Shown here: piece by piece, positions 37,033 through 41,450 of the stretch
Layout: the number at the start of each line of letters is the position of its first letter
Numbering within the stretch: the stretch's first letter is position 1
DNA from: a virus
Reading direction: 5' to 3' (one strand)
IMG/VR virus record: IMGVR_UViG_3300006111_000001
DNA length: 59,891 nucleotides
The notes under the pieces: model-generated
What the model was told of the DNA's origin: nothing
Database searches by the model: none
Seen by the model: the letters and a program-made list of their open reading frames with translations, nothing else
Program-made: the position numbers and the translations under genes

Positions 37033-37907
37033 GCGGCATCCCCAAATAAATTTGATTGCCGATCAACGGAATCCAAATACCGGCACGCCTGGCGCCAATA
37101 AGCCTCTTTCAGTTCCGTGCCAATAAACTTTCGGCCTAGCTTGAGAGACATATACCCCTCAGATCCAATCCCCATAAATGGGCTCAAAACCACATCCCCG
37201 GCATTGCTCCACATAATCAAGGCCCGCTCAATCACATCAAGCTGCAATGGACACAAATGGCGCTCATCATTATGTTCCCGCGCCATGTGGACGTTCAAAA
37301 CATTGGATTGGTTGACAGTCATCCATACCGGGCTGGCCCATTCCTGCCATTGTTCAACGGGGAAATCTTCCGGCGTATGAGTGATAGGATCAGCATTCTC
37401 GCCCGGTTTCACAAACGTCAAAAGGTAATCGGGCATCCCGCCGCGACTTTTGGCGCTGTCTTTTTTTAGCTGCTTATAAAGCAAGCCGACATGCTTTGTA
37501 CGGGTCATTTCCGTGACAGGGCATTTCCAGATCGTGCGCCGTGAATGCAAAATCCATCCTTCCGCCTCATGAGCACGAATAATTTGCCCGCTGAAATCCT
37601 TGATCCCAACCGCGCCATCTTTCCATTTAGTCATCGGGAGATCGGAGCAATGAACGGCAGTCAGCCGCCCAGGTTTGGTTACACGGAATTTTTCGCGCAC
37701 CAAAAATTGATAATGGGCTGCAAATTCTTCATCAGTAGAATTGCCCATATCGGCGGCACTGGTCGAATAAACAAACAGCGATCCGAAAGGCGGCGAATAG
37801 ACCGAAAAATCAATGCTTTCGCTCGGTAACTGGCTTATGACGCTAACGCAGTCTCCGTTGAACGCCGCAAACCGCTCGCCGTGGTATTCGTTGTCGCAGT
37901 CAACCAT
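37029..37907 (-). CDS. DNA methyltransferase, N4/N6 class (beta permutation; SPPF motif)
   Basis: 292 aa; catalytic motif IV as …DFSVYSPPFG… precedes an AdoMet motif I-like …DVVLSPFMGIGSEG…; SPPF/SPPY is commonest in N4-cytosine enzymes but does not fix specificity. Confidence 0.7.
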   Translation of the reverse strand: MVDCDNEYHGERFAAFNGDCVSVISQLPSESIDFSVYSPPFGSLFVYSTSAADMGNSTDEEFAAHYQFLVREKFRVTKPGRLTAVHCSDLPMTKWKDGAVGIKDFSGQIIRAHEAEGWILHSRRTIWKCPVTEMTRTKHVGLLYKQLKKDSAKSRGGMPDYLLTFVKPGENADPITHTPEDFPVEQWQEWASPVWMTVNQSNVLNVHMAREHNDERHLCPLQLDVIERALIMWSNAGDVVLSPFMGIGSEGYMSLKLGRKFIGTELKEAYWRQACRYLDSVDRQSNLFGDAA

Positions 37908-39313
37908 GATGGTAGTCTCCCTTTGTGTTTAGGTTCGTAAGCAATCTTTGTTTGTTGAGTAGTGGTAGCAGACCGAAGCATGGCGGCGCGCATGGCGGAT
38001 TTCATCTTGCTGTGATCCATCGCCTTGCGGTCAATCACGCGTCCGATCTCGGATTCACCCTCTGCAACGATCAAGTGAACATTGACAGGTTTAGTCTGTC
38101 CAAACCGCCAGCAACGGCGGACGGCCTGATACCATGTCTCATAGGAATAGCCGCGACCGACAAACGCCATATCAGCGCAATGCGACCAATCTAAGCCATA
38201 TCCAAGCATCGACGGCTTGCCGATCAGCACCTTGATATCGCCCGAAGCAAAAGCCTCTAGTCGGCTTTCCTTTTCATCAATGGATTGTGCCCCCCGAACC
38301 TCAACCGCAAAAGGCAAAGCCTTTTTAACGCTGTCGGCTTCATAATCGGTATCAACCCAAATGATCCACGGTTTATCTTGAGTGACGAAGCCGCCCAAAA
38401 CATCCGTTCTAGCGGCAGCGGTTTGACGTTTCACGTCATGCAGATTGGTCGCTGATAGGGCCAGATGGGCAAATAGATCATTGCCATCGGTTTTAATTTC
38501 GGTTTGGGCCGCCTGATGCCGGATAATTTCCATCGGCGGCAGATCAAACCGCGAGTCAGTTTCCATGTCCCCCAGATCAGCCGGACGTTCAGCCATCCGG
38601 CACCAAGATGCCATCCAATCCCAAAATGAAATCTCAGCATGACCCTTAAGCCGCCACTCTTGGGAAGCGGTTGAAGTGTCATTGATAAAGAACCGGGATA
38701 GCATTTCATTTGCGGCCATGATTTCAAGAAATTCAGCATAATTGCCAATTTCCATGTGATCATTCGGGGCCGGTGTCGCGGTCGCTGTCAGCTTAAACCG
38801 ATGACCCTTGAACGCATCAATCAACGCCCGCGTGGTTTTATTTGTAAATGATTTAAGAATTGACGCCTCATCAAGTGACACGGCACCAAAAGCATCAGGA
38901 TCAATCTTATCCAAGCGGTCATAATTGCAAATGTTAATTCCTGGTCCAACATCTGACATTTCGCGGATTACGCGGGCCTCATAACCATACTTATCCGCCC
39001 GGCGCTTGGTTTGTTGCGCGACAGCTAACGGCGTCAGCAATAAACCGCGCCCGTTAGTCGCCTTCATGGCGTGGTACAAATACTCAAGCTGGATCTCGGT
39101 TTTGCCCATGCCAGTGTCTAAAAACAACCCAGCCGCGCCGACGCGCAAATTATGGTCAACGCATTCGCGCTGAAACGGAAACAAATGATCCGCTAACAAC
39201 GCATCGCCCTTTAAGCCGCGCATAACCGCACGAGGCTGCTTGGACGCAAGAAAAGATTGATAATCACCGTTCATTTGGTGTCCCAGCATAAAATTTTGTG
39301 TCAACCGGCTCAC
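37835..39313 (-). CDS. SNF2-like superfamily-2 helicase/ATPase
   Basis: 492 aa; Walker A (LDTGMGKT), DEAH-like motif II (VSLDEAS), motif III (LTATATP), and C-terminal …QAVRRCWRFGQTKPVNVHLIVAEGESE typical of SNF2 motif VI. Confidence 0.7.
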   Translation of the reverse strand: MSRLTQNFMLGHQMNGDYQSFLASKQPRAVMRGLKGDALLADHLFPFQRECVDHNLRVGAAGLFLDTGMGKTEIQLEYLYHAMKATNGRGLLLTPLAVAQQTKRRADKYGYEARVIREMSDVGPGINICNYDRLDKIDPDAFGAVSLDEASILKSFTNKTTRALIDAFKGHRFKLTATATPAPNDHMEIGNYAEFLEIMAANEMLSRFFINDTSTASQEWRLKGHAEISFWDWMASWCRMAERPADLGDMETDSRFDLPPMEIIRHQAAQTEIKTDGNDLFAHLALSATNLHDVKRQTAAARTDVLGGFVTQDKPWIIWVDTDYEADSVKKALPFAVEVRGAQSIDEKESRLEAFASGDIKVLIGKPSMLGYGLDWSHCADMAFVGRGYSYETWYQAVRRCWRFGQTKPVNVHLIVAEGESEIGRVIDRKAMDHSKMKSAMRAAMLRSATTTQQTKIAYEPKHKGRLPSWLTATTNTTASGLRRSTETALAS

Positions 39314-39466
39314 CCTCGCCTATCCATTCCAGGCACTCGCTCCAATATTCATGGTGCGAAAGCCCATTGTTTCGACCCGTGCGCGCCCATTTGCCGGTGC
39401 CTATGGCCCAATCCACTTGAGACTTGGGAAAGTGGCGAAAATACCGGATTGCGGGCGCCGCACTCA

Positions 39467-40654
39467 TCATGCCGCCGCCCTCACATCCATATATGCACCT
39501 ATGAACTCTGCCGCTGCTTGCGGGACAATCGCGTTACCGAAGCCGCGCAACATACCCACTCGGTTGGGTAGCCCATCAACCAAGAGACAAATTCCGGGTT
39601 TAACTGGCCTGGCTTTTCCGTCGATCCCGACAATCCGTTCTGCATCGGCCCAATAATTGCCGCTTGAACGTTCAACGCTTGGCTGTTGCGTTCGAATTGT
39701 GACGGCCCCGCGTTGTTTTTGGCGTCGTTCGTTGTCGGCGTCGACCAATAAACCATAGACGGAAGCGTCATGCTCCCCGATCCGTATTTCTGGTTCGGTC
39801 CGCCCTTGTCGCCGTCTGTCGCTTTGGGCGTCGACCAAAGCGCCGGCACATGATCCTGCAAATTGACCTGGTGCCCCGATTGTATCCGGGCTGCCGCTTT
39901 GTCCGGGTCCGTATAGTCCCCGCCGCCCTTCTCGCGCACTTGCGGCGTCGCCCAAAGCGCCGTCGTCTGGCGCAACAACAAGCCCCCTTGTAAATTCGGT
40001 TGAAGCTGCGCGCCCGTCCCGTCGTTCGCCCGAGGCGTCGGCCAAAGTGCTTGGATCGTATTCTGTAGCGTCACTGTTGCTTTTGAGCCGTCCGGCCGGA
40101 CCCCTGTCGGCGTCGTACCGGGAGGATTGCTTTGCCCGCCGCTCGGAGTTGTGGGCGTGGGCCACAAAGAACAATCGGTCGCGGCGGTGCGGCGCGCCGA
40201 CGGCACAAGCCGGAATAATCGCCGCCCCAACGGCGTAATCAAGTCCTTCAAGATCATTGGCGACATTGTCGAGCCATGATTGACCAACCGCTGCCGCAAC
40301 CTGTTCGCCAAACAGGTTTGAAGGTCGACACTCGCCGACGAGCCGAAACAATTCCGGCCAGAGGTGACGCTTGTCGTCGACCCCTTGCCGCTTTCCCGCG
40401 ACACTGAAGGGCTGGCATGGTGGCGAGCCGGTCCAGACGGGACGGTCGACCGGCCATCCGGCAAGTCTAAGAGCCTCGGCCCATCCCCCGATTCCGGCGA
40501 AGAAATGGACTTGGTCGAATCCGACAAGGTCGGCGCCGGTGACGTCGCAAATAGATCGAATGTCGACGAATCCATCTGGAATCAATCCTTGTTTGATTAG
40601 CTCGCGCAACCAAGCAGCGGCAAACGGATCGTTTTCGTTGTAATAAGCCGTCAT
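39467..40654 (-). CDS. DNA (cytosine-5) methyltransferase; conserved motifs split between two reading frames
   Basis: 395-aa frame carries motif I (FFAGIGG), motif IV (GSPPCQPFSVAG), motif VI (FGEQV), motif VIII-like (RRDRLFFV) and C-terminal motif X-like (GNAIVPQAAAEFI). The overlapping frame 39499..40575 carries five LW(P/A/S)TP repeats and a motif IX-like LMGYPTEW. Confidence 0.65.
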   Translation of the reverse strand: MTAYYNENDPFAAAWLRELIKQGLIPDGFVDIRSICDVTGADLVGFDQVHFFAGIGGWAEALRLAGWPVDRPVWTGSPPCQPFSVAGKRQGVDDKRHLWPELFRLVGECRPSNLFGEQVAAAVGQSWLDNVANDLEGLDYAVGAAIIPACAVGAPHRRDRLFFVAHAHNSERRAKQSSRYDADRGPAGRLKSNSDATEYDPSTLADASGERRDGRAASTEFTRGLVVAPDDGALGDAASAREGRRGLYGPGQSGSPDTIGAPGQFAGSCAGALVDAQSDRRRQGRTEPEIRIGEHDASVYGLLVDADNERRQKQRGAVTIRTQQPSVERSSGNYWADAERIVGIDGKARPVKPGICLLVDGLPNRVGMLRGFGNAIVPQAAAEFIGAYMDVRAAA

Positions 40655-41082
40655 GCCGCCACCGCATCCAATTCAAATGCTTCGATGGTTACTTTGACCT
40701 TGGGCTTATCCGCCCAATGCCGCCGCACGGTCAGCCAAATGATTTGCTTGTCATCTTGGTACACAACGCCGTTAAGAGCATCGCAAACCGCCTTGGCGAC
40801 ATTATCCAGATCGACCCGATGAATCGGTGCAAACGTCCCTTTTAAAGCCGCATTGCGTTGACGTGCTGGCCAAGATTTAGGAGGCACGACAAACACATTG
40901 ATGGTCGCCGCTATGGCATTGCCAACCGGATCATCTTTGAACACGGCGCGCGCCGCCCATTGAACGGCTTGCTCATATTCAACCGTCTTGGCGGGAGTAT
41001 AAACATGACCCTGTTTGGTCATGCGCGGACGCTGTTTGCCGACCGGCTCCCCGCCAATTTCAAATGTCGCCAAGTGACGCAT
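40651..41082 (-). CDS. rusA: RusA-family Holliday junction resolvase
   Basis: 143 aa; …EIGGEPVGKQRPRMTKQGHVYTP… and overall RusA pattern. Confidence 0.8.
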   Translation of the reverse strand: MRHLATFEIGGEPVGKQRPRMTKQGHVYTPAKTVEYEQAVQWAARAVFKDDPVGNAIAATINVFVVPPKSWPARQRNAALKGTFAPIHRVDLDNVAKAVCDALNGVVYQDDKQIIWLTVRRHWADKPKVKVTIEAFELDAVAA

Positions 41083-41450
41083 CAGGCCGCAACACGCTTT
41101 AATGCGGCTTCACCCAACGGAGTGGTGGCAAGCATGCCCAAAGCGTTCAAATACAATTCCAGCTTTGCTTCTTCTTCATCGCGCTGCGCTTTGTCTTTTT
41201 TGCGAAGCGCAATGACCTTGCGGATGATTTTGGTTTCAAACCCGTGAGCAGCCGCCTCCGCGTACACATCCTTAATGTCCCCAGCCAGCTCTGCCTTCTC
41301 GGTTTCAAGGCGCTCAATCCGCTCCACTATTGACTGCAATTGTCCGTTTGAAATTGTCATTCTCAATCTCCAAAAAGGCCAGGGCCAAAGCCCCGGCAAG
41401 TTGAGGGAGGTACGCCCGTGTGGGCCTGTTGAGCAGGTAAAAACCCGCAA
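41082..41450 (-). CDS. gapR: GapR-like (DUF2312) nucleoid-associated protein
   Basis: 122 aa; …QLQSIVERIERLETEKAELAGDIKDVYAEAAAHGFETKIIRKVIALRKKDKAQRDEEEAKLELYLNALGM closely follows the Caulobacter GapR/DUF2312 sequence. Confidence 0.8.
   Translation of the reverse strand: MRVFTCSTGPHGRTSLNLPGLWPWPFWRLRMTISNGQLQSIVERIERLETEKAELAGDIKDVYAEAAAHGFETKIIRKVIALRKKDKAQRDEEEAKLELYLNALGMLATTPLGEAALKRVAA

Follow-up and report, generated by a model that had tools for sequence, protein, structure and literature searches.

How can the conserved motifs of a single DNA (cytosine-5) methyltransferase (C5-methyltransferase) be divided between two reading frames of the same DNA? The question is raised by a locus on the minus strand of a 59,891-nucleotide (nt) viral DNA, IMG/VR record IMGVR_UViG_3300006111_000001 (this whole stretch is referred to as the window), for which an initial annotation, made from the sequence, described two overlapping open frames, A and B, that share the motifs between them; all of the coordinates and features given for this split hold. 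The analysis presented here indicates that the locus is probably a nested overlapping gene pair for a two-subunit C5-methyltransferase, in which the products of frames A and B are termed α and β, respectively. The two open reading frames (ORFs) are:

39467..40654, minus strand: frame A ORF (α), 395 amino acids (aa) and stop; large catalytic domain, tether and motif X helix in a single polypeptide
39499..40575, minus strand: frame B ORF (β), 358 aa and stop, from the ORF list; in the +1 frame of A and nested wholly within A

The start-to-start distance of 79 nt places frame B in the +1 frame of A, and the β ORF extends over 91% of α. In the proposed arrangement α would contain the complete large catalytic domain, with motifs I–VIII in its N-terminal region and the motif X helix at its C-terminus, while a tether of ~150 disordered residues would sit where ordinary enzymes carry the small domain. 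β would be read from its own ATG and Shine-Dalgarno (SD) sequence, 79 nt into α and one base out of register, and would supply the small DNA-recognizing domain, consisting of a helix-hairpin, five W(P/A/S)TP modules and a motif IX-like segment that follow a dispensable N-terminal extension.

Conservation of the two-frame layout

More than 130 loci, from a diverse range of phages, prophages and bacteria, display the two-frame layout. In ~50 diverse IMG/VR loci, in which α is 35–65% identical, a +1 ORF covers 85–100% of A, and the overlap of the longest +2 ORF is mostly ~40–110 aa. A +1 ORF likewise covers 82–100% of A in all 65 bacterial genome loci that were parsed, which span many phyla, and a scan of bacterial genomes made with the α alignment gave matches in at least 530 species genomes. 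The same layout occurs in Salmonella phage SEN5, Klebsiella phages KlebP_265 and Seifer and a prophage of Escherichia coli O103:H2, and three-frame translation revealed two open frames with the same motif split in Tunturiibacter phage Tunturi_1, cyanophage Cy-LDV1 and Burkholderia phage vB_E354. When the frame of each motif was tallied over 135 loci, motifs IV and X were in one stop-free frame at 107 of 109 loci, and the motif IX-like sequence W(L/M)MG.P was in the +1 frame at all 96 loci in which the pattern was found. α and β were present together in every locus examined, although the number of W(P/A/S)TP modules among relatives ranges from 0 to 5. The pattern that had been named as fatal to a two-frame reading, homologs with frame A alone, no WPTP-type repeats and an unconserved frame B, is thus the opposite of what the homologs display.

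The family comprises at least 8,000 α homologs and ~12,000 β clusters, and it occurs in hundreds of cultured phages and in the prophages of at least 530 bacterial species. For β, a word-indexed search identified 310 homologs and a HMMER search, with E up to 0.001, 11,868 cluster representatives. A tblastn search with the frame B repeat region found matches in genes annotated as phage ‘DNA methyltransferase’, and in PHROGs each frame has a ‘DNA methyltransferase’ family of its own, phrog_363 and phrog_1008 (frame B against phrog_1008, 1e-35).

The initial annotation offered four explanations for the split motifs: compensating frameshift errors, a pseudogene, programmed frameshifting and a genuine dual-coding region. 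The first two amount to a single-frame gene with two compensating frameshifts, introduced by sequencing or assembly indels or by decay, and the motif order does resemble that of a gene with two indels; furthermore, PGAP splits one E. coli copy into two ‘incomplete’ pseudogene pieces. That E. coli ‘pseudogene’, however, is one intact ORF. In addition, the DNA of the locus is identical in three independent assemblies, the window and two further metagenome assemblies (L005 and L006), both frames are under purifying selection (see below), and the layout persists at 35–65% identity. Its recurrence at upwards of 130 independent loci, some of them in finished genomes of phages and E. coli, argues decisively against error and pseudogene, and we consider this explanation extremely improbable. 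Compensating frameshifts may instead represent the evolutionary origin of the arrangement, rather than an error in the window sequence. Of the four proposals it is the genuine dual-coding region that is supported; frameshifting, which is evaluated below, is not needed and lacks the expected signals.

Selection on the two frames

To what extent each frame is maintained in its own right was assessed against a null of synonymous codon shuffling, in which one frame was shuffled and stops were counted in the others. With A shuffled, 66.6 stops were expected in the +1 frame between A nt 135 and motif VIII (38 loci) and none was observed, compared with 141 observed and 136 expected in the +2 control frame of the same region. 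With B shuffled, 188.8 frame-A stops were expected in the middle, or tether, region (50 loci) and again none was found, compared with 332 observed and 274 expected in the third frame; the loci are interrelated and these counts are not independent trials, but their identities are only 35–65% and the control frames behave entirely differently. In the window alone, the +1 frame remained open across the same 358 codons in 21 of 5,000 synonymous reshuffles of A, and no reshuffle contained more than three W(P/A/S)TP motifs in that frame. This excludes chance for the window alone, and bears out the earlier suspicion that five such Trp-containing repeats in an alternate frame are unlikely to be fortuitous.

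The distribution of constraint along the locus was mapped using the synonymous fraction, the share of single-nucleotide codon differences between close locus pairs that is synonymous in a given frame. The zones, given by position in A, are:

A nt 135-300 (zone N1): synonymous fraction 0.73 in A, 0.19 in B and 0.14 in the third frame; constraint in A only
A nt 300 to just past motif VIII (zone N2): 0.62 in A, 0.44 in B and 0.12 in the third frame; constraint in both frames
Middle zone: 0.24 in A, 0.50 in B and 0.20 in the third frame; constraint in B only
Last 90 nt of B (C zone): 0.64 in A, 0.42 in B and 0.07 in the third frame; constraint in both frames

Codon-position rates agree with this map, and in the repeat region substitutions peak at B codon position 3. 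At A residues 140–150 the identity of B is 0.41, against 0.16 in the synonymous-shuffle null; the corresponding values for the motif IX-like segment are 0.65 and 0.26. The zone fractions indicate that the first ~75 residues of B and the A tether are translated yet free to vary. As judged from these substitution patterns, two zones, β residues 79–137 and the motif IX-like segment, are truly dual-coding. Both frames are held open by selection, with purifying selection acting on each frame in its own zone and on both frames in the two dual zones. The comparison of orthologs frame by frame that had been proposed as a check reveals conservation of both, zone by zone.

These data also bear on the view that frame B is an untranslated by-product, open and conserved only through the conserved A and its +1-stop-avoiding codon usage. 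The apparent conservation of the first ~75 B residues is indeed fully explained by A. The middle zone, however, is constrained in B and not in A (0.50 versus 0.24 synonymous), conservation of the motif IX-like segment exceeds that of the overlapping A residues (0.65 versus 0.42), 67 stops would be expected in B from synonymous shuffling of A, and B is homologous to a separately annotated ORF in Arthrobacter phages. That B is a passive by-product is consequently very unlikely.

The α polypeptide

The following features were assigned to frame A, with model confidence given as the predicted local distance difference test score (pLDDT):

40109..40654, minus strand: α residues 1-182, folded large domain; pLDDT 80-96, supported by profile and BLASTP comparison with M.HhaI
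40484-40504, minus strand: motif I, FFAGIGG
40403-40423, minus strand: motif IV, PPCQPFS
40298-40312, minus strand: motif VI, FGEQV
40175-40192, minus strand: motif VIII, PHRRDR
39650..40108, minus strand: α residues 183-335, low-complexity tether of ~150 residues; stop-free, sequence not constrained, pLDDT 31-47
39470..39649, minus strand: α residues 336-395, conserved hairpin (W..DGK.R.V) and motif X helix
39518-39538, minus strand: motif X, GNAIVPQ

All five motifs that had been ascribed to frame A were found. Motifs I, IV (with the catalytic PCQ), VI and VIII are located in a Rossmann-type large domain, as in the C5-methyltransferases of the PF00145/Dcm superfamily, and motif X (GN..V.P helix), which completes the large domain, is also present in frame A. 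The Pfam DNA_methylase match to frame A is restricted to residues 75–177 (8.7e-22), the Pfam model stopping short of motif X. The α profile aligned to M.HhaI residues 72–175, and BLASTP comparison of α with M.HhaI gave 2e-16. The fold of frame A is thus predicted to be that of the large catalytic domain of a C5-methyltransferase (motifs I–VIII). At the C-terminus Asp345, Leu358, Gly361, Arg365, Leu369, Gly373, Asn374 and Ala375 are invariant in 80 homologs, and the helix spanning residues 378–394 displays pLDDT values >90. In the α polypeptide, no target-recognition domain (TRD) or motif IX was found between motifs VIII and X, as residues 183–335 are disordered and unconstrained. The low-complexity character previously ascribed to the middle of frame A is evident from residues 171–335, 64% of which are Arg, Ala, Gly, Ser, Asp or Glu. 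When a stitched A-B-A model, the Arthrobacter phage protein gp41 and the β C-terminus were compared with Pfam, the DNA_methylase model reached neither motif IX nor motif X in any of them.

Sequences resembling motifs II and III (‘YYNE.D..AA.WL’ and ‘G.VD.RSI’; window 40550–40654, residues 1–35) apparently precede motif I in α, giving the order II-III-I-IV. The AF2 model of α contains strands at residues 3–6, 28–31, 48–51 and 73–76, and the BLASTP alignment with M.HhaI displays a 35-residue gap at HhaI motifs II–III. This motif order may represent a local permutation of the Rossmann fold.

The β polypeptide and its start

Frame B comprises the following parts:

40342..40575, minus strand: β residues 1-78, N-terminal extension over α motifs I-IV; kept open, with no constraint of its own, pLDDT ~50
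40165..40341, minus strand: β residues 79-137, conserved helix and β-hairpin (..LANRLRQRL..GST....W...TP.G....L..S.RRT); dual-coding with α motifs VI-VIII, pLDDT 77-90
39646..40164, minus strand: β residues 138-310, five W(P/A/S)TP..D..G modules, proposed target-recognition part
40164, 40044, 39954, 39837 and 39747, minus strand: codon starts of the five W(P/A/S)TP motifs
39556..39603, minus strand: β residues 325-340, LNPEFVSWLMGYPTEW, motif IX-like segment; dual-coding with the α hairpin
40586..40590, minus strand: SD-like AAGGA, 10 nt upstream of the frame B ATG (40573-40575); duplex energy -5.2 kcal

The N-terminal extension, in which B identity is not above that of the +2 control, is missing in two relatives (L148 and L057). 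Both features that had been attributed to frame B, the five spaced repeats and the motif IX-like segment, were identified. The W(P/A/S)TP motifs begin at β residues 138, 178, 208, 247 and 277, with spacings of 40, 30, 39 and 30. The initial annotation also held that the repeats are visible in the DNA; this stands for the unit GGCGTCGVCCAAAGYGC, which occurs exactly three times (39827, 39944 and 40034) against 0.11 expected, while the remaining two of the five repeats are detectable at the protein level only.

The segment LNPEFVSWLMGYPTEW fits the pattern L.P.E...LMG[FY]P..[YW], with Leu325, Pro327, Trp332, Leu333, Pro337 and Trp340 near-invariant. Comparison of the β profile with M.HhaI using hhalign gave a sole match, at motif IX (residues 269–291), which is weak (E 0.13). 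The identity of the segment as motif IX is fixed by position through gp41 of Arthrobacter phage TaylorSipht, in which the equivalent segment, LSPRFTEWMMGQPAGW, continues in the same frame into GNGVV (motif X). In the structural model of β, built with 89 homologs, residues 1–78 are disordered, residues 80–180 (helix 80–100, hairpin 107–125) and 320–345 are confident, and most of the repeat region is of low confidence. No significant structural match to this model was obtained, leaving the β fold unrecognized, and a sequence-profile search of the PDB with the β alignment returned chance matches only. Frame B has no Pfam match and belongs to no NCBIfam family; similarly, no Pfam domain, and hence no in-frame fusion of the β type to a catalytic domain, was found in the ten longest of the top 150 β relatives.

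Frame B is equipped with initiation signals of its own. Before A offset 140, the open +1 frame contains an ATG in 98% of loci, compared with 55% in synonymous shuffles; an ATG combined with an SD of -5 kcal or stronger is found in 79% of loci, compared with 22%. A recurrent AGGAG, which derives from the A codons E-R(AGG)-S(AGC), lies 7–8 nt upstream of a recurrent ATG. The position of the start varies. In the closest relative (L148) B begins just before the conserved helix. In L057 (~265–1520) an intein (CFPADT...VVHN|C) directly precedes the motif IV catalytic Cys. Frame B upstream of the insertion runs into a stop inside the intein, and B restarts at the intein 3′ end at an ATG with a strong SD, GAGGAGG (-12 kcal). 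The starts in L057 and L148 indicate that the beginning of β is labile and always upstream of the conserved part of B.

These signals have to be set against programmed ribosomal frameshifting, by which a +1 shift after motif VIII and a -1 shift before motif X would generate one canonical chain (I–VIII, TRD, IX and X). The A-B-A order of the motifs is that of an ordinary C5-methyltransferase. Two related IMG/VR contigs, L007 and L028, the only exceptions among the 109 loci mentioned above, have stops in the tether, one in L007 and two in L028 at different places, and nevertheless retain a conserved, in-frame motif X segment in frame A; this is unexplained if α and β form a nested pair and weighs against that interpretation. 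Frameshifting, however, provides no reason for an open A tether (0 stops versus 189 expected) or for a B frame that is open ~100 codons upstream of the junction (0 versus 67 stops), nor for a frame B ATG and SD that are well above chance. Of 53 loci, only 2 have a canonical -1 slippery heptamer close to the B end, and in the window no frame-A stop follows motif VIII to prime a prfB-type +1 shift. Moreover, the C5-methyltransferase M.EcoHK31I functions as two separate polypeptides (PMC2836561). We therefore regard frameshifting as unlikely, and favour two separately initiated proteins.

A proposed two-subunit enzyme and its implications

How would the two proteins act? By analogy with M.EcoHK31I, for which subunit association was demonstrated biochemically, α and β presumably associate into the active enzyme. 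β would set its sequence specificity, and the enzyme would be an orphan of the replication/recombination module that methylates, and thereby protects, phage DNA. No nuclease (restriction) partner was seen near the E. coli and plasmid relatives inspected in context, which are prophage or phage-plasmid genes, and this points to an orphan protective phage methyltransferase.

Both proteins could be made with α alone responsible for methylation, β then being a separate DNA-binding or regulatory protein. The link between β and methylation is indirect and its fold is unrecognized, which leaves room for such a role. α, however, has no folded or constrained region at the place of the TRD and motif IX, while the β C-terminus matches motif IX in pattern and position. 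In Arthrobacter phages a module of the β type is fused in frame to motif X, and α and β co-occur in every locus examined. An independent β is thus a distinctly improbable interpretation, and the two-subunit enzyme is preferred. A wider proposal, which we put forward tentatively and consider somewhat doubtful, is that the whole family consists of obligate two-subunit enzymes split by domain, in which the one to five W(P/A/S)TP modules of β would serve as recognition units in tandem, their number and type setting one or several methylation targets, and that the layout would be a fixed relic of compensating frameshifts in a once single-chain enzyme.

Out-of-frame overlaps that are conserved and reach ~1 kb are very uncommon in bacteria and phages, and are often contested. 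For the overlap described here, the signs of selection are clear in both frames, the layout makes structural sense and there is a precedent from biochemistry. The layout is shared by thousands of genes of phages and prophages, each annotated as one gene, the second gene being missed almost everywhere. If both subunits are needed, as in M.EcoHK31I, a codon-optimized or truncated copy of such a ‘DNA cytosine methyltransferase’ gene would lose β and would probably be inactive or unspecific. Prediction of specificity for these common phage methyltransferases should accordingly rest on frame B and not on the annotated protein.

Genomic context and annotation of the locus

The window has a G+C content of only 51%. 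The genes adjacent to the locus are:

40651..41082, minus strand: RusA resolvase gene, upstream neighbour; Pfam RusA 3.7e-33
41082-41450, minus strand: GapR-like gene, upstream of the locus
37835-39313, minus strand: weakly DEAD/helicase-like ORF, downstream of the locus

The RusA stop and the α start overlap as ATGA (40651–40654), the α stop abuts the ATG of a 68-aa ORF (39264–39470; junction 39467–39470), and the coding junctions with the RusA, GapR-like and weakly DEAD/helicase-like neighbours are overlapping. These stop/start junctions suggest a minus-strand operon with translational coupling around α.

Annotation of the layout in public records (L001, L002, L146 and L148) is inconsistent. 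A alone is annotated in SEN5, the Klebsiella phages and E. coli, and B alone in Tunturi_1 (gp50). In Cy-LDV1 part of B is called a ‘methyltransferase’ and an opposite-strand gene is placed over A. In E. coli Ec1117 the intact α ORF is the one called as two ‘incomplete’ pseudogene pieces by PGAP. For one 3,139-nt contig JGI called A (P0122), and ENA/NCBI called B (P0001). A 159-aa protein on record (P0241, window 39499–39978) is identical to the C-terminal part of frame B, indicating that a truncated frame B ORF was called on the window sequence by at least one gene caller.

In two relatives an HNH endonuclease ORF is located in the B frame, 1–2 codons past the B stop (L039 ~2310–2790; L041 ~2370–2880). 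It is inserted between the α ‘DGK.RPVEP’ hairpin and ‘GNAIVP’, and frame A is open across the ~200-codon insert. The position directly after the B stop suggests that translation of the HNH protein is coupled to β termination, and out-of-frame HNH insertions in methylase genes more generally may be translated by coupling to the β stop codon.

Comparison with known systems

Searches of the accessible literature found no earlier description of the nested gene in phage methyltransferases. The Bacillus phage C5-methyltransferases SPR, phi3T and rho11s are multispecific enzymes in which tandem TRDs are part of a single polypeptide. Like these enzymes, the locus described here is phage-borne and has several short modules between motifs VIII and IX, in this case five of 30–40 aa. 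Its modules, in contrast, are in a second frame, and that the W(P/A/S)TP modules act as separate TRDs is a proposal.

M.AquI (CYCGRG) is a C5-methyltransferase of two subunits, the second of which carries motifs IX and X (PMC3404938). It resembles the present locus in being naturally split within the variable region, and its two polypeptides must associate (PMC3404938). Here, however, motif X stays with α by means of the tether and β is nested inside α, and the arrangement is thus not of the M.AquI type. A closer match to M.AquI is provided by the following pair from Arthrobacter phage TaylorSipht, which, as in its relatives, is annotated as two ‘DNA methyltransferase’ genes:

L003 936-2292: TaylorSipht gp40 and gp41, two ORFs one base out of register

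As in β, gp41 contains (L/W)PTP..D..GG repeats and a motif IX-like segment (BLASTP 8e-16 against β), and it is in the +1 frame of gp40, where it is open ~70 codons into gp40 over motifs VI–VIII, upstream of its annotated ATG. In contrast to the locus in the window, gp40 terminates past motif VIII, the gp41 frame supplies motif X after motif IX, and the overlap is partial. The order of the ORFs suggests an AquI-like split with partial overlap, perhaps with a mis-set start. That a cut in the variable region can be tolerated was shown with artificially split M.HhaI, M.SssI and M.BspRI, which reassemble from two chains (PMC3404938, PMC3439449). Those engineered halves are co-linear, while here the split is by domain, large versus small, in overlapping frames.

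A second protein out of frame within a phage methylase gene is known from the ‘ShiLan domain’, a hidden HNH endonuclease in a mycobacteriophage methylase whose host frame is open (PMC11855218), and the two relatives described above, L039 and L041, carry such an HNH ORF. The ShiLan endonuclease is, however, a selfish insertion and not an enzyme subunit, and a nested β gene is not described in PMC11855218.

The closest parallel is M.EcoHK31I (YGGCCR), the heterodimeric C5-methyltransferase of E. coli HK31 (Lee, Kam and Shaw, 1995), as presented in PMC2836561 and PMC3404938. According to these accounts, α carries motifs I–VIII and X, β carries motif IX, both are required for activity, the first 42 residues of β are dispensable in vitro, and the TRD, in an assignment that is itself a prediction, is placed in α. 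Compared with that published description, the β ORF of the present locus also lies wholly inside the α ORF in another frame (here +1), α contains motifs I–VIII and X, β contains the motif IX-like segment LNPEFVSWLMGYPTEW, for which the hhalign support is weak (E 0.13), and β has a dispensable N-terminus, which comparative evidence puts at ~75 residues. The two systems differ in that the constrained sequence between motifs VIII and IX is here in β only and not in α, β is 91% of the extent of α and carries selected repeat modules, the variable region of α is an unconstrained disordered tether, and the gene is an orphan phage gene rather than part of a restriction-modification pair. The subunit sizes of M.EcoHK31I, we presume, would fit the conserved part of β, which provides a lead only. 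M.EaeI, a relative of M.EcoHK31I, is similar. To our knowledge M.EcoHK31I is the only precedent for the nested two-subunit layout. As likened by description, the locus in the window probably represents a kind of C5-methyltransferase, nested and of two subunits, that has been known since M.EcoHK31I in 1995 and is rarely recognized.

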